DNA from: a virus
Taxonomy: Duplodnaviria; Heunggongvirae; Uroviricota; Caudoviricetes
Length of the DNA stretch: 44,255 bases
Virus record (IMG/VR): IMGVR_UViG_2690316062_000005
Reading direction: 5' to 3' (one strand)
Position 1 is the first letter of the stretch; each line of letters starts with the position of its first letter. This document shows positions 2,835 through 23,667 of the stretch, in pieces. The position numbers were made by a program, and so were the translations under genes. A model generated the notes under the pieces. The model was given only the letters and a program-made list of their open reading frames with translations. It was not told the DNA's origin and did not search any database.

Positions 2835-5800
2835 TTATGCCTGAGTACGCAGCGCTTCAAGGCGGCGCAGGTCGAAGTCGTTCAGTTCGTCGGTGTAGTC
2901 AGCAGTGATTGGCGCTGGCCATTCACCTGTGTCGAATCCGGTTGCGATATTGCGCATCGCTTTGCGGTACTCGAGCATACCCAGCTCCAGTAGTTCAGCG
3001 GATGCCTCGATGATGGCGATCCAGTGGTAGTTCTCGTCTTTGTTGACGAAAATCCAGAAGAACTGATCCAGCGCTGCGGTTTCGCAGTACATAGCCGCGC
3101 TCAGGTGATAATCACGTTCAATAATTTCCCGGTGTAGCCTGGCGCGCAGGCTTTCCTGCTTAACATTCCACATGCTGATGGTTTTCAGGTCTGCACCTAT
3201 ACGCACGCCATCCAGGTCGATCTCAAGGTCAGGGCGCACACGAACTTCCAAGCCCGTCTCCTCGTCAAAACCAAAGTAGCTCACCTCAACGGCTCGGCTA
3301 GGGTGGGTCAGCAGCATGCCGGCGGTCGGGTGTGCCAGAAGCGCTTTTTGAATATTCAGCGCGGTGCTCAGCTGCTGGCGGGTGACCAGCACTTTTCCTT
3401 CCGGGTTATCGCGCCAGGCATCCAGCAGTTCGTCGGCAAATACGGCATCTGGTTTGACTGCCTTCACGGCCTGGATCATGTCTGCTTTGGTACCGGACAC
3501 TTTCAGTGGTGCCGGTTTCTGTGCTTCCTGAGCCACAAGGTCAGGGTTGATGATTGCCAACTGCTCCAGCAGCGCGTCACGGCTGCCGCTGGTTTTAACC
3601 GGCGGCGGCAGGGTGGCGTTGTACTCTTTAATGCATGCCTTCATTGCCGTCGCCGTCTGCTTCTGGTCACCATCAATACGCTGGAAGTCAGCTGGCAGCG
3701 CCATATAGTTCTGTGCCGTTTCTTCCAGGTTAGCGCCAAGCGGAACCTGCGGCGGCAGGGTGGCGTTGTACTCTTCCAGTAACACCTTGATGTCGTCGGC
3801 AGACAGCAGCGCCGGCAGGCTGGCATTGTGCTCATCGATAAAGGCGCGCAGGGTCGCGGCCGTTGTGAATGCGCCTTCAGGGATCACCGGTTCAACGCTG
3901 AATTCTGCGTCCAGTAGTTCAGGCTGCAACGCCAGCGCATGCACCAAGTTGCCCATGTCCAGCACCGCTGAGCGCTCTTTGACGATGGTTTTCTCTACGT
4001 GGCGCGCATTGAAGTACATCAGCGAAACGCGCGCATCTTTCACCTGGGTTGAGCTGATGCCGTTGGCGGCGTGGTAAACCTCGTTTGGCAGCCCTTCATA
4101 GCGGCCTGGCTCGAAATAAGCGGGATAAACAACAGCTGGTTCGTCAGATTGCGCTTCTGGCTCGGTTTGTGCTGCAACTGGTTCGGTTTGGCTTACAGAA
4201 TCGCTATTTTTGGCGACAGAATCCGTATTCTGGTCTACATCGTCCTTCTGGCTGGTATCTGACTCTTCACCAGACTCCAGACTGCTTTCGCCTGGCTGTA
4301 CTTCATCACCAGCTTGTTTTTCATCACTGACAGTTTCTTGAACCTGCACATTGCTGGTGGTCTCCGTAGCCTTTTTCGTGCCATGAGTTGCTGAGTTCTG
4401 CAGCAAAGCCGTAACGTCGAATATTCCGTTGCCGACATTTTTAACCAGTTCTTGTTCGACTTTCTGCGGTTGTGCTGCCGCTTCCTCTGCGCGGCGGCGT
4501 GCTCCTTCTTCACGCACGCGTTGCAGGTTCTCTTCGTGAGTGCAGAAGGATTTGCGCGGAGACTCCTTACCTTCAGGTTGGGGAATTTCCTGTGCTGCGG
4601 GTTCAGCCTCATGCAACGGCAATAACTCGACCGCGGAATTGAACGCGGCTGTCATGGTCTGGTTAACAAATTCCAGGTGAGCGACAGGAGTTAAATGAAT
4701 ATTTTCCGGTGCGATACGTACCAGGTTAAAAATAGCCGTGCGGTTAACACCCAGAACGCCTGGCTGATTGCGCAGGATGTTGCTCCATGATTTCCATGGT
4801 TCTTCTTTTTTGGTCACGATTTCTTTAGCGCGACGAAGAATGCTGCCCGGGATCTCGAAGTGGTTGAAGTCCATAGGCAGAAGGGCACACGCAATCTCTA
4901 AATCGAGAGTGTCCAGTGTGTGGTGTGCGTCAGGTCCACGGTCAGTGACGTAACCGCCGTCGGCATTAGTGCCGGAATCAGTACGCTGCACACTACTGAT
5001 GCGATTACCGGCGGCCCATTCGCGAACGAGGATACCGCGGTCGATGTGATCTGTAGCGAACCACAATTTCAAAAACTGGATTAAGGTTGCGAGTTCAGGG
5101 ATTTTTCCATCGACAGGGAAGACTTTCTTAACGGCATTCACGACTTTATGAATATCGTGCTCAATGGCTTTTTTGAATGCTTCCACATTCTCAGCTGCCA
5201 GCAGCAGGTTCTGGACGTACGCGTCATCGGTGTCCATCTCAAGGCGGACAATCTCATTTTTCTGCCCTGCGTCGATGTGATAGAGATATTCACCATCACC
5301 GATGAACTGAGCCAGTACGCGCTGGCGGAATGGCAGGGTGGCAACAACGATCAGGTTCGGTTGCTGTGTCTGCTGGGATTGCTCTTCGGTATCGACTTCA
5401 CCATCAACGACGCCACCTTCTGCCCGGCCGTTCTCGTCGGTCTGGATACCGTCCTCAACAGTGAGATCTTGACCCGTTGTAACGTCAGCAGCGTTGCTGG
5501 TTTCAGTTTTGAGCAACTGCAACTTACCACTGCGCCAGTCTTCTACCAGTTGATTGCGGTCACCGGCATCGGTGTTCACCCAGTCAGACATGAATGCAGC
5601 GATCAATCTTGGTTCGTGCTCTTCGTCTGGTGTGAAAATGTCCTTAACCGCCCGAATCATTTTCCACTCAGCATTCAGGCTGAGTTTGGCGGTCGCGGGC
5701 ACATCGTTCCTTGCCACAAGCAGGCTATGGAGATATGTATTGCCTTCATCCAGTGACATTTCGCTGGCAGCCAACTGCTGCTCTTTAGTGACGTGGGTTT

Positions 5801-6224
5801 GGTATTTATCGTTCATCAGATGGACGGCAAAGCGGACCGCTGGAGTACGGTTTTCAACCGGGACAATTTCGGACGCAGTCGCATCTTCAACGATTACGGT
5901 CGGAGTAGGTGTGTAGGGGGCGTCAACGGAACCAGTAGACACACCAGCGGCTTTTGGCAGCCAGGTGCGCCCATCGTCCTGAAGCTCGTAGCGATCACAC
6001 CAGGTAAAATCAACTTCACCTTCTTTCGGCAGGCCGTCGACAACTGGGAAATCAGTGCGAATCGGTTTGGCGTAGTCCTTACCCCGACCTGTTTCGATAC
6101 CTGCATCTTCCAGCGCAACATCCAGCATCAGATTGGCGCGAGCCTCGGTTTTAGCAGTGAACCAGACCACTGCATCTTGCTTTCCGGATTTCTGAGTGGC
6201 TTTAACCACATTAAAGAATTCCAT
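2835..6224 (-). CDS. recE: Exodeoxyribonuclease VIII (RecE-like) with C-terminal PD-(D/E)XK nuclease domain
   Basis: 1129-aa ORF; GAGGA RBS upstream; long acidic/low-complexity N-terminal region and conserved C-terminal nuclease region; paired with recT as in Rac-type prophages. Confidence 0.7.
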   Translation of the reverse strand: MEFFNVVKATQKSGKQDAVVWFTAKTEARANLMLDVALEDAGIETGRGKDYAKPIRTDFPVVDGLPKEGEVDFTWCDRYELQDDGRTWLPKAAGVSTGSVDAPYTPTPTVIVEDATASEIVPVENRTPAVRFAVHLMNDKYQTHVTKEQQLAASEMSLDEGNTYLHSLLVARNDVPATAKLSLNAEWKMIRAVKDIFTPDEEHEPRLIAAFMSDWVNTDAGDRNQLVEDWRSGKLQLLKTETSNAADVTTGQDLTVEDGIQTDENGRAEGGVVDGEVDTEEQSQQTQQPNLIVVATLPFRQRVLAQFIGDGEYLYHIDAGQKNEIVRLEMDTDDAYVQNLLLAAENVEAFKKAIEHDIHKVVNAVKKVFPVDGKIPELATLIQFLKLWFATDHIDRGILVREWAAGNRISSVQRTDSGTNADGGYVTDRGPDAHHTLDTLDLEIACALLPMDFNHFEIPGSILRRAKEIVTKKEEPWKSWSNILRNQPGVLGVNRTAIFNLVRIAPENIHLTPVAHLEFVNQTMTAAFNSAVELLPLHEAEPAAQEIPQPEGKESPRKSFCTHEENLQRVREEGARRRAEEAAAQPQKVEQELVKNVGNGIFDVTALLQNSATHGTKKATETTSNVQVQETVSDEKQAGDEVQPGESSLESGEESDTSQKDDVDQNTDSVAKNSDSVSQTEPVAAQTEPEAQSDEPAVVYPAYFEPGRYEGLPNEVYHAANGISSTQVKDARVSLMYFNARHVEKTIVKERSAVLDMGNLVHALALQPELLDAEFSVEPVIPEGAFTTAATLRAFIDEHNASLPALLSADDIKVLLEEYNATLPPQVPLGANLEETAQNYMALPADFQRIDGDQKQTATAMKACIKEYNATLPPPVKTSGSRDALLEQLAIINPDLVAQEAQKPAPLKVSGTKADMIQAVKAVKPDAVFADELLDAWRDNPEGKVLVTRQQLSTALNIQKALLAHPTAGMLLTHPSRAVEVSYFGFDEETGLEVRVRPDLEIDLDGVRIGADLKTISMWNVKQESLRARLHREIIERDYHLSAAMYCETAALDQFFWIFVNKDENYHWIAIIEASAELLELGMLEYRKAMRNIATGFDTGEWPAPITADYTDELNDFDLRRLEALRTQA

Positions 6225-8967: not shown

Positions 8968-9651
8968 TTACAATCGGTTATACTTTATTGATTCATGAAT
9001 CAATGCCTTACCCATTACGTAGAGTTGATCCTGATTACCTTCGTTAATGTACCACTTCTCATAAGCTGAGTTATCAGACAAAACTGCCAACCTATCGCCC
9101 TGCATCTGCAAGCGCTTCACATGGAAATGTTGTCCGAAAACGAACGCATAAACACCGTCGACCTTGAAGTTTCTTACAGAAATATCGAAAAACAATCTGT
9201 CACCAGACTGTATAGTTGGACACATGCTGTCGCCATCGACCGTCATTACTTTTACGTCTTCCTGAGAACGATTTCCGAAGAGTGAACGAGCGTGTTCGGT
9301 TGTGAACTCAATGGCGTGTAGAACCTCAACAAACTCAGAAATCATGAAAGAACCTGGCCCCGCGCTAAATGTCAGGTCAAGTACGTCAACTCTGAATATG
9401 TTTGAGTCTTTTTTTGTCGCGGTAATGGGAGGCGGTAGCTGGCCATCGTTACGCATCGGTCCGGATCCCGTGGAAAGCCATTCAGGGCGAACATTGAGAA
9501 CAGAAGCTATCTCGACCGTTTTTCTTGAGCTTGATGCACCATTTAGCAGCTTGTTAACACTTGACTGTGCCATGCCAACTGCCTTAGCTAGCTTGCCCTG
9601 TGTATAACCCGCCTCATTCATTGCGCGATCTAATCGCTCAGAAAAACTCAT
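8968..9651 (-). CDS. cI: CI-like prophage repressor (HTH + S24/LexA-type autopeptidase domain)
   Basis: Start set at MSFSERLDRAMNEAGYTQGKLAKAVG (HTH); C-terminal GDSM (Ser) and HVKRL (Lys) dyad of S24 peptidases; divergent from cro with operators between. Confidence 0.85.
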   Translation of the reverse strand: MSFSERLDRAMNEAGYTQGKLAKAVGMAQSSVNKLLNGASSSRKTVEIASVLNVRPEWLSTGSGPMRNDGQLPPPITATKKDSNIFRVDVLDLTFSAGPGSFMISEFVEVLHAIEFTTEHARSLFGNRSQEDVKVMTVDGDSMCPTIQSGDRLFFDISVRNFKVDGVYAFVFGQHFHVKRLQMQGDRLAVLSDNSAYEKWYINEGNQDQLYVMGKALIHESIKYNRL

Positions 9652-9679
9652 TAAAGATACCCCCCTAATAACCTTCATA

Positions 9680-9760
9680 AATATTATCGCCACAGCGATT
9701 AATAAGCAAAAAATCGCATAGGCGATTGACATTCGTTAAAGCGATAAACATAATCAACCT
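9680..9760. promoter_or_regulatory. Immunity switch: two 14-bp palindromic operators with divergent pRM / pR promoters
   Basis: ATCGCCACAGCGAT (9686-9699) and ATCGCATAGGCGAT (9713-9726); pR -35 TTGACA (9726-9731) and -10 CATAAT (9749-9754), 17-bp spacer; pRM on minus strand -35 TTGCTT (9704-9709) and -10 TAATAT (9681-9686), 17-bp spacer. Confidence 0.55.
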
Positions 9761-9781
9761 AAATTGATAGAAGGAGCGATT

Positions 9782-10012
9782 ATGAAAAACCCTGCTGTAG
9801 AAAAAGCGATTGCAATCGCCGGTAGTCAGAAAGAGCTAGCGAAGCGATGTGGTAAGGCCCAATCCACGGTCTGTGACTGGTTAAATGGGAAAAAACAAAT
9901 CTCCCCGATCCATGTTCCTGTTTTGGTAAAGGCAAGCGAAGGACAGATTCAAGCTCATGAATTCCGTCCCGACCTTCCTGAATTGTTTCCGCATCCACAT
10001 TCAGCCGCCTGA
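9782..10012 (+). CDS. cro: Cro-like HTH regulator
   Basis: 76 aa from ATG with AGGAG RBS; HTH-like segment GSQKELAKRCGKAQSTVCDWLNG; divergent from cI. Confidence 0.6.
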   Translation: MKNPAVEKAIAIAGSQKELAKRCGKAQSTVCDWLNGKKQISPIHVPVLVKASEGQIQAHEFRPDLPELFPHPHSAA

Positions 10013-10043: not shown

Positions 10044-10583
10044 ATGCAATCACTTACGTTTTACCAGGATACAGGAGTACCGCAACAAGCGGTGATAAAT
10101 CGCGCTCAAACCTATAAGGGGCCGTGTCACGAAGATATTCGAAATGCCGTTCGTTCATGGGCGGGTGTAGATGGTCAGGATGTCGTTTCTGCTCTGATCG
10201 TCGAAGAGTACCGGGCGCAGGGTGGTTATGACATCACTTTCCCTGACGATCTCTGCCGAAAGCGGCAGAAGCTTTTCCGCTTCCTGGATAACCATTTCAA
10301 CAGCGAACGGTACCGTGAGAACGTTCGCCAGCTGACTCCGGCAATCCTGGCGGTCCTGCCGATTGAATACCGCAACCGTCTGCTACCAGAAGACAACGTT
10401 ATGGCCCGCCTGGCTCGGCTGGAGAAAGAAACCAGCGAAGCGAAGATTGCCGTCGCAATGGATGCGCCACGCCATCAAAAGCTGAAAGAGTTGAGCGAGG
10501 GGATCGTGGAGATGTATCGCGTTGACCCTGGGTTAACCGGTCCACTGATGGAGATGGTGCAGATGATGCTGGGGGCTATATGA
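10044..10583 (+). CDS. CII-like / YdaT-like early regulatory protein
   Basis: 179 aa immediately after cro and before O; family assignment by position and vague recall only. Confidence 0.4.
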   Translation: MQSLTFYQDTGVPQQAVINRAQTYKGPCHEDIRNAVRSWAGVDGQDVVSALIVEEYRAQGGYDITFPDDLCRKRQKLFRFLDNHFNSERYRENVRQLTPAILAVLPIEYRNRLLPEDNVMARLARLEKETSEAKIAVAMDAPRHQKLKELSEGIVEMYRVDPGLTGPLMEMVQMMLGAI

Positions 10584-14844: not shown

Positions 14845-15495
14845 ATGAGCGACAACCAGTTAGCACCTTGTTGGGAATTTCAGCCTTACCTTGCTGAAAG
14901 CAATGTTCGTCAGTTGTTAGCGGAAATTGCTAATGTACTCGAGCAATTGTACTACCACAAACACACACTGGACAGTAACTGGTCCGAAGGTGTAAGGGCT
15001 TATGATTGGGTCAGAAATCATTTGATTCAAAGTGAAGGGACACTGCCGGGTCTGGAAATGGTTTCGAAGGGACTGGATTATGTGGTTGCGTTAAATAAAG
15101 TGCCGCTGCAGTTCTCCAAAGATTGCATTAATAACCCGAAGAAGAAGCATCGCCTTCTTCGAAATAGGGTGGAGCATGAGCAACTTTCATTGTTCGGTGA
15201 AACTGAAGCCGAGCAAGATATTACATGGCGGATCATCGCCGAACCATTTTTATCCGATGAAGAAGATGGCGAGCTGGAATCAACATTGCCTCGCTGGGAA
15301 GTGGCTTTAGTTGGGTTTAACGCATATGGTGCCCAGATCAGTATGGTTTCACACCAATCTACTGCTTCAGCGCCGCTTATGTCTCTTGATACCAACACTC
15401 TTCCGGATGAAGCTGAGATTGGCAAAGCCTCTCTTCGCCGCCGTAAAAAAGATCAAGATTTGGATGTGAGCAGTAATGGAACATCAAGTGAATGA
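14845..15495 (+). CDS. Hypothetical protein, unknown fold; candidate toxin/effector partner of downstream HTH-peptidase
   Basis: 216 aa; no motif I recognise; overlaps the downstream gene by 20 nt (out of frame). Confidence 0.55.
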   Translation: MSDNQLAPCWEFQPYLAESNVRQLLAEIANVLEQLYYHKHTLDSNWSEGVRAYDWVRNHLIQSEGTLPGLEMVSKGLDYVVALNKVPLQFSKDCINNPKKKHRLLRNRVEHEQLSLFGETEAEQDITWRIIAEPFLSDEEDGELESTLPRWEVALVGFNAYGAQISMVSHQSTASAPLMSLDTNTLPDEAEIGKASLRRRKKDQDLDVSSNGTSSE

Positions 15496-16579
15496 CTTTG
15501 CTGAGTATCGTGGGGATAAGCTCAAATTAGCCAGAATGGCTGTTGGGCTCTCCTGCGAAGAGTTAGCGGAGAAAATTGGTAAAACAAAACAATTCGTTAG
15601 CAAATTGGAAAAAGGGTTTAAACCATCAGAACAGTTGTTAGAATTAATCTCATCTGCGCTGATGATTAAATCTGATTTCCTATTTACTGAACGAAAATAT
15701 GCTTTAGAAAGCGATGTTTGCCATTTTCGGAGTAAAAAATCGAGAACCCAAACATTAACCAATAGTGTTCTGGCAAGGGCGGAGATTCTTAACATTATAA
15801 TCTCTGCCGTTGAGGGAGAAATCGAGTTTCCTGATGTTTTCATACCTGAGCACCCCGGTGCTGAATTGCTGACTCCAAATGATATTGAACGTGTAGCGGA
15901 AGACTGCAGAAGAGCATGGAACTTAGGGCTGGGACCTATATCCTCAATGGTCAAACTGGCTGAGAGTTTGGGGGTTATTGTTGCTCATGTGACAGGAGTG
16001 GATGACCGCGTAGATGCTTTTACTGTTCATAACAACAGGCCAGTAATCATCCGAAATAACGTCAAAAAGAGTATATGCAGATTCCGATCAGATTTAGGTC
16101 ACGAATTGGGGCACTTGGTTATGCACGAAGGTATAACCACAGGAGATAAAGTGACTGAATCGCAAGCGGATCGTTTTTCAAGCGCGTTGCTAGTTCCTCG
16201 ATTGTCCTTTATTAAAGAGTTTCCCCGTATACGAGGAAGACAGTTCGATTGGAACGCCCTAGTTGAGTTTAAGCTTCGGTGGAAGATTAGTCTTAAAATG
16301 TGCATTTACCGAGCAACAACTCTAGGCCTGCTGACGCAGGAGCAGGCAAGAACAGGTTATATGCATTTGAACTCTAAAGGATATACGAAAGTTGAACCAG
16401 GAGATGAATTTATTCGCCCGGAAGAACCGAGTATGTTAGCTGAGGCGATTGAAATGCTGGATGATGCAACATGGATGAGCATTCTCATGAAAACTGGTTT
16501 AAGCCAGGAGTTGGTTAGGGAGTTATTCTCGGTAAACCGCCCACTGTCAAATCCAAGAAATCTACTTCAACTGGTTTGA
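15476..16579 (+). CDS. XRE-family HTH fused to ImmA/IrrE-type zinc metallopeptidase (COG2856-like)
   Basis: 367 aa; N-terminal HTH (LARMAVGLSCEELAEKIGKTKQFVSKLEKG); HEXXH zinc-binding motif in DLGHELGHLVMHEG. Confidence 0.8.
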   Translation: MEHQVNDFAEYRGDKLKLARMAVGLSCEELAEKIGKTKQFVSKLEKGFKPSEQLLELISSALMIKSDFLFTERKYALESDVCHFRSKKSRTQTLTNSVLARAEILNIIISAVEGEIEFPDVFIPEHPGAELLTPNDIERVAEDCRRAWNLGLGPISSMVKLAESLGVIVAHVTGVDDRVDAFTVHNNRPVIIRNNVKKSICRFRSDLGHELGHLVMHEGITTGDKVTESQADRFSSALLVPRLSFIKEFPRIRGRQFDWNALVEFKLRWKISLKMCIYRATTLGLLTQEQARTGYMHLNSKGYTKVEPGDEFIRPEEPSMLAEAIEMLDDATWMSILMKTGLSQELVRELFSVNRPLSNPRNLLQLV

Positions 16580-18718: not shown

Positions 18719-19411
18719 ATGAATACTCAATTTCTCGAATACGTGCGCCAGCAGTTGATGGTGGCCACCGCCGATTTAAGTGGTGCGACAAAAGGACAGC
18801 TGCAGGCGTTCAGTGATCATCCACCAGCAGATAAGAACAAATACCCCCGGCACCATCCTGAAATCGTCATGGAAGGTGGGGAAGGTTGTGGATCGAAGGT
18901 TGTAAAAACTCTGGCCACTCCGCTTTATGTTCTTGAGACAAGGAGCCGTCGCCGACCTTTACCGCCTATTAAGGATACGGAGTTCGCTTGTTCAGCATGG
19001 CGTCGGTCGGTGAATGGTCTGGGGGAGCATTTGCAGGCATGGGTGCGGTATTGCTATGGGTATGACCTGACCTTCCGGTACCAGACGTTAATGTGCCAGT
19101 ACGTGTGGGAACAATTTCAGCGTCAGCATAGCGGCAAAAAAATACAGGGCCGTGTCACTAAAAAACTGATAGGGCTTGTCTGGCTGGCGGCGCAAGAAGT
19201 TGCTGCCTCGCGTAATAACGATACCTATCAGGAGTATGCTGGAGCAGCTCTGGCGCGCATGGTCAGCGTTGAGCGTTCCACCTGGCTCAGAGTGTATTCA
19301 GGCCACTGGGCGGCTTTCAAAGCGTCGTTTGCAGAAATGGACAGCCAGGCACTAAGCGAAATTTTGTCACGGTACGAAGAGTACCAAGAACTCAAAGTGG
19401 CGGAAATGTGA
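18719..19411 (+). CDS. Late-gene antiterminator Q-like protein
   Basis: 230 aa; located after rusA and directly upstream of late promoter/terminator and lysis genes; Cys-containing segment; assignment mainly positional. Confidence 0.55.
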   Translation: MNTQFLEYVRQQLMVATADLSGATKGQLQAFSDHPPADKNKYPRHHPEIVMEGGEGCGSKVVKTLATPLYVLETRSRRRPLPPIKDTEFACSAWRRSVNGLGEHLQAWVRYCYGYDLTFRYQTLMCQYVWEQFQRQHSGKKIQGRVTKKLIGLVWLAAQEVAASRNNDTYQEYAGAALARMVSVERSTWLRVYSGHWAAFKASFAEMDSQALSEILSRYEEYQELKVAEM

Positions 19412-19506
19412 GATAACTTTCACTAACTCCCTCAATTGGGCTTGCAAAATGCAACAAAATAAGCGATATTTGAAGCTAATTTGATATGTTGCCAACAGTA
19501 TATAAA

Positions 19507-19528
19507 CCCGCCAGTGAGCGGGTTTTTT
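19507..19528 (+). terminator. tR'-like intrinsic terminator downstream of the late promoter
   Basis: CCCGC-CAGTGA-GCGGG hairpin followed by TTTTTT about 100 nt after the Q stop; candidate -35 TTGCAA (19442-19447) upstream. Confidence 0.6.
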
Positions 19529-19880
19529 AATTTTGCGGAATACTTTTTTAATCGCAGAAAAGCATGTCGTTTCGTTTTGATAGGAAAAAACGATGGATAG
19601 GCAACACAAGGCTCTAATGTGCGTAAGTTTGATGGATATGATAATTACGCACAGCTTATCAACAATATTTTGCTATTAGTTAAGTTGTGAATAACTTTTT
19701 TTGTTGATAACTCTTTTTTCTGTGGATAAGTCTGTAGGTTTATTAAATTCTTATGCACAAGTAGAACGCTGATGGTCCTGTACAATCCCGTAAAAGCTTC
19801 AATACTGATGACAGCAATATAAAAACCTATCCAGTGAAGCTATTGAAAACATACAGAATTTGGTTTTCTTCGGGAAAATT

Positions 19881-20636
19881 ATGTCAGGACAGCCTGAGTC
19901 AAAAGAACAAGAACTGCTTGCAACAATCCTCGATTACTTCCAGAAGGGAGAAGTCCCGGATACAGACACTATTGCGGAAATTGAGCGCGACATTGCTAAA
20001 CTTCCAATAAGTGAGCGCGCACATGCGTATGCATGGCTTAATGGAACTCTCGGGCGTCACTCTGATGCAGTACGTTTATTCAAAGACGCGATGAGCTCTG
20101 GGAGTCCAACGATCGCACAAAACTACTTGGCGTATCTTTCTCGTTCGGCTCATAACTATGAGCATCGCGTTGAGTTGTTTAGAATAGTTGAGCTTTTCCC
20201 TTCACATGAACTGAGGCTTGTAGCAAGAAACGCTGCATTTTGTATCGGCAACGACAAGTTGGTTAAAAAGTTCTCCCTCAAAATGGCTGCTCTTTATGAT
20301 GGCCAAGAGCGAGAGGATATAATCAATCAGGGAAATTATATGGCTGAACAGATTGTTGATTTCAAAAACGCTACCCGTCTTTCTTCTCGAGAACTAGAAG
20401 CCCTTTGCGATCAAGCTGAAGAGATTGCGAACAAGCGCGGTATTAACTGTTCAAGTGTTAGCTATTATCTTGGTGGAGATGATGACAATGCATTCATCGT
20501 TAGAGCCCAAACTGCTGATCCGCAGGTTTTAGCTGAAATGAACATGGAACTGTTGGTTTTGCTCTCAGATGATAGTTATCGGAACAGCCCTTTTACATCC
20601 TGGTTTCAAAGCGATGAAAAAAGAGGGATTTACTGA
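19881..20636 (+). CDS. Hypothetical protein (moron, all-alpha)
   Basis: 251 aa from ATG at 19881 (ORF track begins at an upstream TTG); 1-nt TGATG coupling to the next gene. Confidence 0.55.
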   Translation: MSGQPESKEQELLATILDYFQKGEVPDTDTIAEIERDIAKLPISERAHAYAWLNGTLGRHSDAVRLFKDAMSSGSPTIAQNYLAYLSRSAHNYEHRVELFRIVELFPSHELRLVARNAAFCIGNDKLVKKFSLKMAALYDGQEREDIINQGNYMAEQIVDFKNATRLSSRELEALCDQAEEIANKRGINCSSVSYYLGGDDDNAFIVRAQTADPQVLAEMNMELLVLLSDDSYRNSPFTSWFQSDEKRGIY

Positions 20637-21040
20637 TGAGCGTATCGGGGAAAGATTTTATTGTTTTTGCTGGTAAATGCATTTCTCACAACGATGAAAT
20701 CGGTTACAGAAACGCCATTGGTCGAGCGTATTATGGAGTTTATCATGAAACGCTTGATAAGCTTGAGAAATGCCCAAACAAGTCGTCACACCAAGCTGTT
20801 CGCGACTATCTTACAAATGATGCATGGTTAAAAGGAAATGAGCCGTTTGAAAAAATGAAACTCATTTCTATGGGAACAATGCTGAGACATTTGCATACCC
20901 GACGTAAATGGGCAGATTACGAGCTTGATAGAACTTTAAGTAAGGCTGATGCGGAAGCTATATTGATAATGGCTAACAAAGCTATTGACACCCTTCAGCA
21001 GATGTATGAGCAGGTTTATCCATCCGAACCTGCTGCTTGA
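20636..21040 (+). CDS. Hypothetical protein with R-x6-H motif (possible HEPN-like domain)
   Basis: 134 aa; AGAGGGA RBS; motif RAYYGVYHE near N-terminus; followed by a terminator. Confidence 0.55.
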   Translation: MSVSGKDFIVFAGKCISHNDEIGYRNAIGRAYYGVYHETLDKLEKCPNKSSHQAVRDYLTNDAWLKGNEPFEKMKLISMGTMLRHLHTRRKWADYELDRTLSKADAEAILIMANKAIDTLQQMYEQVYPSEPAA

Positions 21041-21057
21041 TTATCTATTCGAAATAA

Positions 21058-21080
21058 CCTCGCTTAAGCGGGGTTTTTTT
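21058..21080 (+). terminator. Intrinsic terminator
   Basis: Hairpin around CGCTT/AAGCG followed by TTTTTTT. Confidence 0.55.
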
Positions 21081-21249
21081 ATGCCTTCGCACCTCCATTT
21101 CGGAGGTATTTTGCTGTGAAAATGGGCGGCTGGTGGATGTTGGAGCACCCACCAGCCATCAGCTCATGCTTTCAGGTCACAAGCTAACCAAGGCCCATTG
21201 CTTTAGCGCAAAAGCAAAGAGAGCCTATCAGAGTTACGCTTATTGATCT

Positions 21250-22302
21250 ATGAAAAATACTGTAAATATAAACAGTGTTGAGTTAGTCAACGCTGATAGC
21301 CTGCAATACATCGCCACTCTCCCTGATAACTCCATTGACCTGATAGTCACGGATCCGCCGTACTTCAAAGTGAAACCCAACGGCTGGGACAATCAGTGGA
21401 AAGGGGATGAGGATTATCTTCGCTGGCTTGATATGTGCCTCGCACAATTCTGGCGAGTGCTTAAACCTGCTGGCAGTCTTTATCTTTTCTCCGGTCACCG
21501 CCTGGCGGCAGACATTGAGATCATGATGCGTGAGCGGTTCAACGTCCTGAACCACATCATCTGGGCTAAACCGTCGGGCCGCTGGAATGGCTGTAATAAA
21601 GAGAGTCTGCGCTCTTACTTCCCTGCAACAGAGCGCATCCTCTTCGCTGAGCATTACCAGGGGCCGTATAAACCAAAGAGCGACGGTTACGCGGAGAAGG
21701 GAAGCGAGCTGAAGCAGCATGTAATGACTCCCCTAATTTCTTATTTCCGGGATGCACGTGAAGCGCTTGGCATAACCTCAAAACAAATAGCCGATGCGAC
21801 TGGAAAGAAGAACATGGTGTCTCACTGGTTCAGCGGTAGCCAGTGGCAATTACCGAATGAATCAGACTACCGGAATCTTCAGTCCCTTTTCACGCAGGTA
21901 GCCATCGAAAAGCACCAGAACGGCGAACTGGCAACACCACACCACCAGCTGGTGGCTATGTGGCATTCGTTAAATCGCAAGTATTCAGAGCTGCTCGAAG
22001 AGTACAAATCGCTTCGGCGGCATTTCTCTGTTTCCGTATCCGTTCCTTATACCGACGTCTGGACACATAAACCCGTTCAGTTTTACCCAGGTAAACACCC
22101 ATGCGAAAAACCCGCTGACATGTTGCGGCAGATCATCAACGCCAGCAGTAAGCCTAGTGATGTGGTGGCTGATTTCTTTATGGGGTCCGGTTCGACCGTG
22201 AAAATCGCGCTGGAACTTGGCCGCCAGGCTATCGGCGTTGAACTCGAGGAGGACAGGTTTAGCCAGACGGTGGAGGAAATAAGGGCGTTAACAGGGGAAT
22301 AA
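21250..22302 (+). CDS. DNA amino-methyltransferase (N6-adenine or N4-cytosine; beta-class motif order)
   Basis: 350 aa; DPPY motif (LIVTDPPYF) near N-terminus and FxGxG-like AdoMet motif (DFFMGSGST) near C-terminus; no adjacent restriction endonuclease. Confidence 0.8.
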   Translation: MKNTVNINSVELVNADSLQYIATLPDNSIDLIVTDPPYFKVKPNGWDNQWKGDEDYLRWLDMCLAQFWRVLKPAGSLYLFSGHRLAADIEIMMRERFNVLNHIIWAKPSGRWNGCNKESLRSYFPATERILFAEHYQGPYKPKSDGYAEKGSELKQHVMTPLISYFRDAREALGITSKQIADATGKKNMVSHWFSGSQWQLPNESDYRNLQSLFTQVAIEKHQNGELATPHHQLVAMWHSLNRKYSELLEEYKSLRRHFSVSVSVPYTDVWTHKPVQFYPGKHPCEKPADMLRQIINASSKPSDVVADFFMGSGSTVKIALELGRQAIGVELEEDRFSQTVEEIRALTGE

Positions 22303-22307
22303 ACGTG

Positions 22308-22330
22308 AGGTCGCTCAAGCGGCCTTTTTT
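22308..22330 (+). terminator. Putative intrinsic terminator
   Basis: Imperfect hairpin GGTCGCT-CA-AGCGGCC (one G-U pair) followed by TTTTTTATT. Confidence 0.4.
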
Positions 22331-22370
22331 ATTACCTCAATAACACCCGCACACAGCGAGGTGAGAGACC

Positions 22371-22673
22371 ATGAAAATGAATGATTCAGGGAACATTTTC
22401 ACGCAGTTCTTCGCGTGGGTAGCAGCTCTGGCGTCAGCCATTGGTTTTACCACTCAGGATATGGTGTTCATGTTCTTTGGCGCCGCTGGTCTGCTTATCT
22501 CGTTTGCCTCCTATGTCAATGGTCGCGTGGATGCCCACCGCAGGCGTAGAGAGGACGAGAAGCGAACAAAAATGGTTAATGACTACCTGAAAGGCGTTGG
22601 TGATAAACCCCTTCACGAACGTCCTGCGGCTGCAAGCGTGGTCGTTGAGGCATTACAAAAGGAAGGTGAGTGA
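22371..22673 (+). CDS. Holin
   Basis: 100 aa; MKMN dual-start-like N-terminus; two to three hydrophobic helices; charged C-terminal tail; immediately upstream of endolysin. Confidence 0.6.
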   Translation: MKMNDSGNIFTQFFAWVAALASAIGFTTQDMVFMFFGAAGLLISFASYVNGRVDAHRRRREDEKRTKMVNDYLKGVGDKPLHERPAAASVVVEALQKEGE

Positions 22674-23206
22674 TGGGATCCAGAGCAAAATTAAGTGCTG
22701 CTGTTCTGGGGTTGGTACTTGCTGGTGCGCCAGCATCCGTCATTCTCGATCAGTTTCTGAATGAGAAAGAGGGAAACAGCCTTACAGCGTACAAAGATGG
22801 CAGCGGTATCTGGACGATTTGCCGGGGAGCTACCACGGTTGACGGCAAGCCTGTTACCCCAGGTATGAGGCTATCGCCAGAGAAATGTAATCAGGTGAAC
22901 GCCAGCGAGCTGAACAAGGCGCTGGCTTGGGTCGACCGCAATATCCAGGTACCACTGACCGAACCGCAGAAAGCGGGGATTGCCTCATTCTGCCCGTACA
23001 ACATTGGTCCTGGTAAATGCTTCCCTTCTACCTTTTATAAACGCATCAACGCCGGTGATCGTAAAGGGGCATGTGAAGCAATCCGCTGGTGGATCAAAGA
23101 CGGTGGCCGCGATTGCCGACTAACCAAAGGCCAGAAGAATGGCTGCTATGGTCAGGTTGAGAGACGGGACCAGGAAAGCGCGCTGGCGTGTTGGGGGTTA
23201 GATTAG
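22673..23206 (+). CDS. SAR endolysin (T4-lysozyme-like muramidase with N-terminal signal-arrest-release domain)
   Basis: Hydrophobic Gly/Ala-rich N-terminus ([19 protein letters not shown]) followed by E-x8-D-x5-T catalytic spacing ([16 protein letters not shown]). Confidence 0.8.
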
Positions 23207-23667
23207 TGAGCCGATTAACAGCAATTATCTGTGCTGTCGTTATCTGCCTGATGGTTTCCATGGCTTGGGCTATTAACCACTACCGCGGCAACGCCATCAC
23301 CTACAAAGACCAGCGCGATAAAGCCATTAAGAATCTTAACCAGGCGAACGCCACCATCAAAGACATGCAGATCCGCCAGCGTGATGCAGCGGTGCTGGAT
23401 GCCAAATACACGAAGGACTTAGCTGATGCTAAAAAGCAGCTTGATGATTTGCAGCGTTGTGTTCGCACTGGCAAGTGTGGGCTGCACGTCAACGCCAGAT
23501 GTCCCGCGAACGGAGCGACCAGCACCGGCGGCCTGGGCGATGTTACCGGCCCCCGACTTACTGACTCCGCTGAACGGGATTATTTCACCCTCAGAGAGCG
23601 AATCGTCACAGTGACGAAACAGGTTGGATATTTGCAGGAATACATCAAAGAGCAGTGCTTAAATTGA
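23206..23667 (+). CDS. rz: Rz i-spanin
   Basis: N-terminal TM segment then coiled coil; close to lambda Rz (…[19 protein letters not shown]…[15 protein letters not shown]…). Confidence 0.75.
23426..23614 (+). CDS. rz1: Rz1 o-spanin lipoprotein, embedded out of frame within rz
   Basis: 62 aa; signal peptide with lipobox-like SVGC; Pro-rich; ...[10 protein letters not shown] matches lambda Rz1; GAAGGA RBS. Confidence 0.75.

Follow-up and report, generated by a model that had tools for sequence, protein, structure and literature searches.

The window analysed in this work, a 44,255-nt stretch of viral DNA (IMG/VR record IMGVR_UViG_2690316062_000005), is a lambdoid prophage with an integrase gene at positions 1-1194, genes for RecT and an ExoVIII-like protein, the replication genes O and P, RusA, and a CI-type repressor gene on the minus strand (8968-9732). 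No tRNA or tmRNA genes were found in the window. The region from the late antiterminator gene to the lysis genes contains the following features:

18719..19411, plus strand: late antiterminator Q gene (Pfam Phage_antiter_Q, PF06323, E = 2.6e-44)
19504..19535, plus strand: tR'-like intrinsic terminator, 93 nt past Q (8-bp G+C-rich hairpin, then a T-run)
19860-20636 and 20636-21040, upstream of the methylase gene: two ORFs without known function (phrog_17809 and phrog_5176)
21056..21082, plus strand: intrinsic terminator upstream of the methylase cassette (AACCTCGCTTAAGCGGGGTT, then TTTTTTT)
21091..21107, strand not assigned: hairpin P0, directly 5' of the conserved element (hairpin scan)
21108..21249, either strand: predicted conserved structured RNA element (covariance model and compensatory changes)
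21250..22302, plus strand: methylase gene, predicted M.EcoGII-family beta-class N6-adenine methyltransferase (ATG start, 350 aa)
21352..21363, plus strand: catalytic motif IV, DPPY, aa 35-38 (read directly from the sequence)
21748..21840, plus strand: tentative Xre-like helix-turn-helix, aa 167-197, in the target-recognition region (Pfam HTH_3)
22171..22197, plus strand: AdoMet-binding motif I, DFFMGSGST, aa 308-316 (located in the translation)
22307..22333, plus strand: intrinsic terminator between the methylase and holin genes (GAGGTCGCTCAAGCGGCCTT, then TTTTAT)
22371..23667, plus strand: lysis cassette with holin (22371-22673, phrog_1350), lysozyme (22670-23206, Pfam Phage_lysozyme) and Rz (23188-23667, Pfam Phage_lysis) genes

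The terminator at 19504 was assigned as a putative tR' from its position only; the best promoter-like match ahead of it (TTGCAA-17-GATATT, 8/12) is weak and was scored by eye. In total, three plus-strand terminators lie between Q and the holin gene, and a consensus scan found no plus-strand promoter-like site in this interval. The terminators at 21056 and 22307 have similar stem-loops. A hairpin occupies the place of P0 in most related loci, with differing sequences; the conservation of its loop (AGTAAT/AGTGAT) was rejected as a sign of RNA function, these bases being the stop codon of an upstream small ORF in other phages. The first-pass annotation had placed the methylase gene in the late region, which agrees with the presence of Q upstream and of the holin, lysozyme and Rz genes downstream. 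Its statement that no restriction endonuclease is adjacent also holds: Pfam and PADLOC gave no nuclease or defence match in the two upstream ORFs, and the downstream neighbour is the holin gene. These ORFs were rejected as a hidden endonuclease partner, because they have no such match and seldom occur with the methylase gene (1 of 80 species loci). A cognate endonuclease gene kept together with the methylase gene, as in type II restriction-modification pairs, was not found beside it. An identical (100%) copy of the methylase gene is present in the same arrangement in a prophage of E. coli ECONIH4, where it is followed by genes for terminase, portal, capsid and a contractile tail.

The region 21250-22302 is an intact gene for a beta-class amino-methyltransferase, as had been proposed previously from the order of its motifs. 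The DPPY motif precedes the FMGSG sequence of motif I (aa 310-314, nt 22177-22191) and the recognition region lies between them, which is the beta-class order. The protein matches Pfam PF01555 (N6_N4_Mtase) over aa 29-340 with E = 4.3e-42 and 145 bits against a cutoff of 26.7, and its whole length is matched by DNA methyltransferase families of PHROG (E = 1e-98) and by MTase_II of PADLOC (E = 1.7e-145). Degenerate catalytic motifs had been named as evidence that would speak against this assignment; in 30 aligned homologues, DPPY is invariant, as are residues D308, F309, F310, G312, S313 and G314 of motif I. In RefSeq the protein is named DNA methyltransferase, and the NCBI family name is “site-specific DNA-methyltransferase”.

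Among solved structures, the best sequence matches are M.BceJIV, M.RsrI, M.MboIIA and CcrM, all of the beta class. The alignments always consist of two stretches, the N-terminal catalytic and the C-terminal AdoMet-binding one, and leave the middle 165 aa uncovered. These four enzymes share the catalytic fold and motifs with the methylase, whereas they are about 20% identical to it, lack the middle region and have defined sites. An AlphaFold model with 30 close homologues as input reached a pLDDT of 63, with the catalytic core alone well modelled and segments 99-144 and 251-286 below 50; in a Foldseek search with this model, the top 37 matches were all beta-class enzymes (E down to 3e-9). The middle part may contain a helix-turn-helix at aa 167-197, where HTH_3 was matched below its cutoff (E = 7.9e-4, 19.8 bits versus 23) and the model gave weak Foldseek matches to the helix-turn-helix domains of ClgR, SinR and EDF-1 (E = 0.2-0.5).

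The original report describes M.EcoGII as a 349-aa beta-class enzyme from a prophage of E. coli O104:H4 C227-11 that methylates adenine in any sequence context (PMC5778455). For comparison, its sequence was taken from a machine-read supplementary table (PMC11551740) and checked against the genome of E. coli O104:H4 FDAARGOS_349, where the protein encoded at 4641-5687 of the locus (L207) is the same as the printed sequence at 345 of 350 positions, with mismatches only at machine-reading errors. The methylase is 79% identical to this protein (275/347) without gaps. The identity decreases along the protein, from 83% in aa 1-115 to 77% in aa 116-280 and 71% in aa 281-350; 38 of the 165 positions differ in the target-recognition region, aa 116-280. 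No structure of M.EcoGII was present among the solved structures in the PDB copy searched. Judged by sequence, the methylase adds a new member to the M.EcoGII family, which has been characterised before, and is related to M.EcoGII at the level of an orthologue.

Reconstructed ancestors of this lineage provide a second line of comparison. Identity of the methylase to them falls from 85% for Anc289 and 83% for Anc291 to 73% for Anc284, 64% for Anc250 and 61% for Anc242, which places its apparent branch point on the M.EcoGII lineage between Anc284 and Anc289/291. Every ancestor amenable to purification methylated both DNA and RNA (PMC11551740); no motif was seen on RNA for M.EcoGII, Anc291 and Anc284, RNA being the only substrate on which the non-specificity of the ancestors was directly tested (PMC11551740). 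Because of the gap-free identity to M.EcoGII and the broad activity of the deeper ancestors, the predicted target of the methylase is probably any adenine, with little or no sequence preference. The 21% divergence from M.EcoGII, which includes the recognition region, could in principle restore such a preference. The first-pass annotation had called the target specificity unknown and had allowed for either N6-adenine or N4-cytosine methylation; the homology-based prediction takes the place of the former statement and retains the adenine part of the latter, N4-cytosine activity being unlikely because of the homology to M.EcoGII.

The gene family is widespread. At megablast sensitivity it was detected in 590 of 5426 complete E. 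coli genomes, and 2879 protein clusters matched with E <= 1e-20, the 120 listed being chiefly from Enterobacterales. Its members include genes of the phages mEp460, Ayreon, Flotzy, Eeyore and PY54, of Stx2 phages, and of Vibrio and Aeromonas phages. In mEp460 the methylase gene stands between Q and the holin gene, and in PY54, Val-yong3 and phiARM81ld it is followed by the genes for holin, endolysin and spanin; in Stx2a_WGPS2 and at M.EcoGII, Q is followed by the methylase gene and then by tRNA genes and stx. A lysozyme homologue lies downstream of the methylase gene in at least 31 of 63 species loci. This conserved slot between Q and the lysis or late genes supports late, pre-lysis expression. 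The methylase gene is under purifying selection: in comparisons with homologues from other genera of Enterobacterales, dN/dS was 0.04-0.11 (about 0.05), with synonymous sites near saturation.

The first-pass annotation made no mention of a conserved structured element just upstream of the gene. In an alignment of 230 nt upstream of the start codon from three phages, conservation of the last ~135 nt exceeds that of the coding sequence, and across species the element is 83-96% identical at the nucleotide level, against 44-55% for third codon positions of the methylase gene. The predicted fold comprises five helices:

21123-21127 with 21193-21197: P1, closing a three-way junction
21128-21139 with 21146-21157: P2, a long hairpin in the three-way junction
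21159-21168 with 21178-21187: P3, a hairpin in the three-way junction
21199-21204 with 21211-21216: P4, a hairpin after the junction
21218-21224 with 21238-21244: P5, enclosing the conserved GAGCC at 21221-21225

To assess this structure, 80 species loci were reduced to 46 non-redundant upstream regions and aligned with MAFFT (alignment A2). With the manually derived structure, made up of P1 to P4, 84.9% of the helix cells are paired and compensatory changes occur at 20 of 38 pairs; no shuffle out of 500 equalled the observed values, and slid registers gave 28-44% pairing. The model-based alignment A3 of 71 sequences, which is biased towards the covariance model that built it, gave compensatory changes in 28 of 38 pairs, 87.4% of cells paired and again no equal among 500 shuffles. 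The covariance model R1 has exactly one match in the window (21108-21270, 176.6 bits) and also finds the element in phages outside its seed: PY54 (E = 4e-21), Val-yong3 of Vibrio (5e-13) and phiARM81ld of Aeromonas (8.5e-7). In addition, the 5' flank GCTGTGA (21113-21119) is complementary to TCACAAGC (21177-21184). In each of the 71 sequences this flank is complementary to the 3' side of P3, and the two change together in PY54, L071, Val-yong3 and phiARM81ld; the complementarity may represent either a pseudoknot or an alternative fold.

The 3' arm of P5 is lineage-dependent: in the E. coli type it stops ~7 nt short of the AUG, and in the Serratia type it covers the AUG. The score of P5, 6.17 compared with 5.15 +/- 0.15 after swapping of the 3' parts, gives this helix modest support. 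An earlier version of P5 (ATCAG/CTGAT) showed no covariation and was replaced by the GAGC-enclosing helix, and the alternative pairing GCUCAU-GUGAGC was rejected by eye, being absent from the Hafnia and Providencia groups. Other readings of the region were considered as well. A small ORF in the element (21 aa in the window, 33 aa in Stx2a_WGPS2) was rejected, its frame not being conserved because of an indel; an extended -10 promoter on the plus strand at TGTGAAAAT was rejected, since variants like TGTGGAAAT do not preserve the key bases.

The element and the methylase gene are closely linked. An exact diagnostic 15-mer was found in 120 IMG/VR contigs, with the true element in 107; a methylase homologue follows at a fixed distance in 106 of these, and the single exception has lost the methylase gene. 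The element also sits directly 5' of M.EcoGII itself, where the equivalent site is 4497-4661 of L207. By blastn, it is present in 2636 of 5426 complete E. coli genomes, in up to 8 copies per genome and with more than 3700 E. coli copies in all, and none of the 30 records listed carries an annotation under the match. Rfam 15 gave no match at gathering thresholds anywhere in the window, the sub-threshold matches being at chance level (E up to 1), and a hammerhead-like core and known riboswitch classes, considered as candidates, were rejected for want of Rfam support. Literature searches by sequence strings and by topic returned nothing relevant to the element; their coverage was partial and they are no proof of novelty. 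If real, the element would be an RNA that is widespread in E. coli and unannotated.

The strand from which this RNA would be produced was addressed by comparing both orientations. In the 71 sequences, 94.3% of helix cells are paired on the minus strand versus 87.4% on the plus strand. Among the non-Watson-Crick cells, 246 are AC/CA, which pair on the minus strand only, versus 61 GU/UG, which pair on the plus strand only; by position, 23 pairs favour minus versus 10 for plus. The minimum free energy is -45.6 kcal/mol for the minus strand versus -39.2 for the plus strand, and is lower for minus in 17 of 18 sequences. RNAalifold energies are equal on both strands, and P2 shows no strand bias. Third positions of methylase codons 2-12 are unusually conserved (0.66 versus about 1.3 bits), and codons 2-11 contain a candidate antisense promoter:

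21254..21281, minus strand: weak sigma-70-like match, TCAACA-16-TATTTT (8/12)

In most loci of the E. coli type this match keeps the same position, and it reaches 10/12 in a Providencia locus (L062); it is not kept in the Hafnia, Serratia and PY54 groups, and no clear minus-strand terminator for the element was found. On the sense strand, the E. coli-type start codon of the methylase gene has no nearby Shine-Dalgarno sequence, and a conserved GAGC(C) lies ~28 nt upstream of the start, inside P5. By a rough judgement, which is an estimate and not a computed value, we lean slightly towards an antisense RNA and regard a sense leader as a substantial, lesser possibility, leaving a small remainder for both together or another arrangement. 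Cis-antisense RNAs control toxic genes in hok/sok, symE/SymR and P22 sar/ant. The present element would resemble those systems in that a short, highly structured RNA region overlaps the 5' end of a harmful gene, and here the pairing favours the opposite strand; it differs in that no sequence or Rfam relationship to them exists, and in that the “toxin” of the prophage is an enzyme that serves lytic growth.

Whichever strand is used, the likely role of the element is tight post-transcriptional control of a harmful methylase gene. With moderate confidence, we favour a joint reading in which it represents a new class of structured regulatory RNA situated 5' of every M.EcoGII-family gene. According to this reading, the element would be built of a three-way junction and two hairpins. 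It would be either a 5' leader or an antisense RNA, might respond to a ligand or protein, and would keep the methylase off in lysogens and confine it to the final minutes before lysis. Its occurrence would extend to about half of the complete genomes of E. coli and to Yersinia, Vibrio and Aeromonas phages of the N15/PY54 type, in the latter phages combined with a Com-type translational activator.

For the locus as a whole, we propose that a lambdoid prophage expresses an orphan adenine methyltransferase late, and we consider this mechanism, with all its steps taken jointly, likely. In a lysogen, the terminators would halt transcripts from the late promoter and so keep the methylase silent. On induction, Q-modified RNA polymerase would pass these terminators, as suggested by the gene order and consensus scans, and the methylase would thus be made minutes before lysis. 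The enzyme would transfer the methyl group of S-adenosylmethionine to adenine N6 with little or no sequence preference, so that progeny DNA would be packaged heavily m6A-modified and would resist the many restriction systems that adenine methylation blocks; harm to the host would be immaterial, since lysis follows. The 140-nt element at the start codon would most likely provide a further, post-transcriptional level of control over this harmful gene; it could be an antisense RNA, or a folded 5' leader hiding the ribosome-binding region.

M.EcoGI and M.EcoGII are reported to be silent in lysogens and deleterious on expression (PMC12707154, PMC5778455). The earlier suggestion that the methylase serves anti-restriction or epigenetic regulation is plausible in its first part; epigenetic regulation of the lysogen is unlikely, because these two relatives are lysogen-silent and harmful and because the gene, which lies between terminators, has no promoter-like site of its own. 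In the literature consulted on M.EcoGII, no report of a protective effect of such methylation on progeny phage was found.

Of the competing explanations, a sequence-specific N6-adenine methyltransferase, whose own site would shield the DNA against one or a few restriction systems, appears unlikely; this view is implicit in the first-pass annotation. Most beta-class enzymes, such as M.BceJIV, M.RsrI and CcrM, are site-specific, the NCBI family name is of this kind, and the 38 differences from M.EcoGII in aa 116-280 fall where specificity could change. However, the identity to M.EcoGII extends over the protein without indels, the nearest confirmed site-specific enzyme, M.PflMI, is only ~27% identical to M.EcoGII (PMC11551740), and ancestors farther from M.EcoGII than the window protein still methylate broadly. 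E. coli homologues ~93% similar to M.EcoGI/GII were likewise predicted to be “nonspecific” on the basis of REBASE (PMC6602927).

We give even less weight to the idea that the main natural substrate is host or phage RNA, with the enzyme acting as a late regulator or in host shut-off and not in anti-restriction. RNA and DNA:RNA hybrids are in vitro substrates of M.EcoGII (PMC7544214, PMC5778455), relatives of the same lineage reach 12-fold higher RNA activity, and an MT-A70-family methylase of an Stx prophage acts on 16S rRNA (PMC10810198). The last enzyme is unrelated: it was rejected as a relative because of its DPPW motif, its MT-A70 family and its location in the early region. Against an RNA substrate, M.EcoGII extensively methylates DNA in vivo, according to PMC5778455, and the slot right before the lysis genes fits the marking of DNA for packaging. 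Residue 179 of the methylase is Q, as in M.EcoGII, and the substitution E179Q in an RNA-improved ancestor cut RNA activity 3.4-fold. Least probable, to a degree that makes it very doubtful, is the view that the gene is a passenger (moron) which is decaying or inactive and now serves no function. The two similar terminators flank the gene as they would an inserted cassette, the prophage of M.EcoGII was termed cryptic in its report (PMC5778455), and pseudogenes occur among the neighbours of the gene at the O104:H4 locus; yet the methylase has an uninterrupted reading frame and a full set of catalytic residues, dN/dS is low across Enterobacterales, and viable phages, among them mEp460, PY54, Flotzy and Eeyore, have retained the gene along with its upstream element.

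The favoured reading, a late-expressed adenine methyltransferase of broad specificity, is illustrated by comparison with its closest characterised relative. In both cases a beta-class enzyme of nearly the same length (350 versus 349 aa, with gap-free alignment) is encoded in a prophage, in the slot after Q and before the late or lysis genes, behind the same upstream element. The two differ at 72 of 347 residues and in their surroundings: the prophage of the window copy has a contractile, myovirus-type tail and carries the holin gene immediately after the methylase gene, whereas tRNA genes and a degraded late region come after M.EcoGII. A small winged-helix ORF precedes the element at M.EcoGII, and two unrelated ORFs and an extra terminator take its place in the window.

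A further parallel is the mom gene of phage Mu, which directs a host-harmful DNA modification and is silent in the lysogen, expressed late, active in anti-restriction and subject to an extra post-transcriptional control (PMC12707154); the same paper makes the analogy to mom explicitly. Control of the methylase by the element would be analogous in its logic to that of com/mom. In the Vibrio and Aeromonas phage relatives, a Com-type zinc-ribbon ORF (Pfam Zn_ribbon_Com, E = 1.6e-6) lies between the element and the methylase gene, an arrangement like that of com-mom in Mu. The window differs in having only the RNA element in the place of Com; no ORF of 25-120 aa with a CxxC...CxxC pattern was found anywhere in it. 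To our knowledge, Mom itself is not a SAM-dependent methyltransferase and has no sequence relation to the methylase.

As a member of the known M.EcoGII family, the methylase is on its own of low interest; M.EcoGII is already a commercial reagent. The recurrence of the gene before the lysis genes of lambdoid and N15/PY54-like phages provides a testable picture of a broad-spectrum anti-restriction device, in which the adenines of the progeny would be methylated regardless of sequence at the last moment. Murray et al. described M.EcoGI and M.EcoGII as lysogen-silent, on the assumption that the usual repression of a prophage is responsible. The element next to the start codon, here and at M.EcoGII, suggests a dedicated post-transcriptional lock. 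This unannotated and strongly covarying RNA element is the part worth follow-up and, if its proposed role is true, it could bear on the practical expression of M.EcoGII-type enzymes.

A conserved structured RNA element is located directly 5' of all examined methylase genes of the M.EcoGII family, with a fold composed of hairpins and a three-way junction and covariation in 28 of its 38 pairs. The element was located at the following positions:

Window, 21108-21249: RNA element abutting the methylase start codon
L207 (M.EcoGII locus of E. coli O104:H4 FDAARGOS_349), 4497-4661: RNA element
L204 (related locus), 2360-2521: RNA element
L206 (Vibrio phage Val-yong3), 2225-2382: RNA element
L205 (Aeromonas phage phiARM81ld), 2224-2380: RNA element
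L198 (viral contig), 9660-9863, minus strand of the locus: RNA element in the methylase-less contig

The element had no match in Rfam, and no annotation on it was found among the matches listed; it was identified in 2636 of 5426 complete E. coli genomes. The pairing statistics lean towards the minus strand. In methylase codons 2-9 (window 21250-21285), synonymous positions are near-invariant across genera, with a third-position entropy of 0-1.0 bit vs ~1.3 bits elsewhere, and thus the nucleotide-level constraint on the RNA element reaches ~27 nt into the methylase coding sequence.

In the Stx-type and mEp460-type phages, a small ORF of ~65 aa, which is absent from the window, terminates within a hairpin just 5' of the RNA element. 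Its product gave weak, sub-threshold winged-helix matches in Pfam (TrmB, HTH_24; E ~0.003).

L002, 4653-4850: small ORF
L003, 3647-3850: small ORF
L207, 4286-4489: small ORF
L198, 9871-10239, minus strand: small ORF

The single viral contig L198 has no methylase gene but carries this small ORF together with the RNA element, and a gene for a NanS-p-like SASA esterase directly follows the element; the segment from the methylase to stx has apparently been deleted in this contig.

In phages phiARM81ld and Val-yong3, the gene order is RNA element, Com-type zinc-ribbon ORF (motif LRCxxC...IKCxRCK) and methylase gene, an arrangement that matches com-mom of phage Mu.

L205, 2362-2577: Com-type ORF of phiARM81ld (Pfam Zn_ribbon_Com, E 1.6e-6)
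L206, 2362-2478: Com-type ORF of Val-yong3

The Val-yong3 record calls its ORF 'RNA polymerase subunit P', apparently a misnomer.

In the early-right region of the prophage, a 367-aa protein (15476-16579) has an Xre-type HTH at its N-terminus and, in the same chain, an ImmA/IrrE (Peptidase_M78) domain; the two are usual partners, and their fusion in one protein is unusual. A 179-aa YdaT-toxin-domain protein (10044-10583) adjoins the immunity region. The ExoVIII/RecE-like protein encoded beside RecT (2835-6224, minus strand) is unusually long (1128 aa) and carries a PDDEXK domain at its C-terminus. A 62-aa ORF (23426-23614) with the lipoprotein-like signal LASVGC lies within the Rz gene, in its +1 frame, and presumably encodes the Rz1 outer-membrane spanin.

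Two overlapping ORFs (19860-21040), located 3' of the tR'-like terminator and 5' of the methylase cassette, encode proteins of 258 aa (phrog_17809) and 134 aa (phrog_5176) from families without an assigned function, which had no match in Pfam or PADLOC. The pair has an A+T-rich gap of 335 nt on its 5' side and a strong terminator on its 3' side, an organization resembling that of a separately inserted cargo unit. It is present in only one of 80 related loci. The methylase cassette is itself bracketed by two terminators with similar stem-loops:

Window, 21056-21082: terminator, stem-loop TCGCTTAAGCGG
Window, 22307-22333: terminator, stem-loop TCGCTCAAGCGG

Gain or loss of the methylase cassette could proceed via recombination between these similar repeats.
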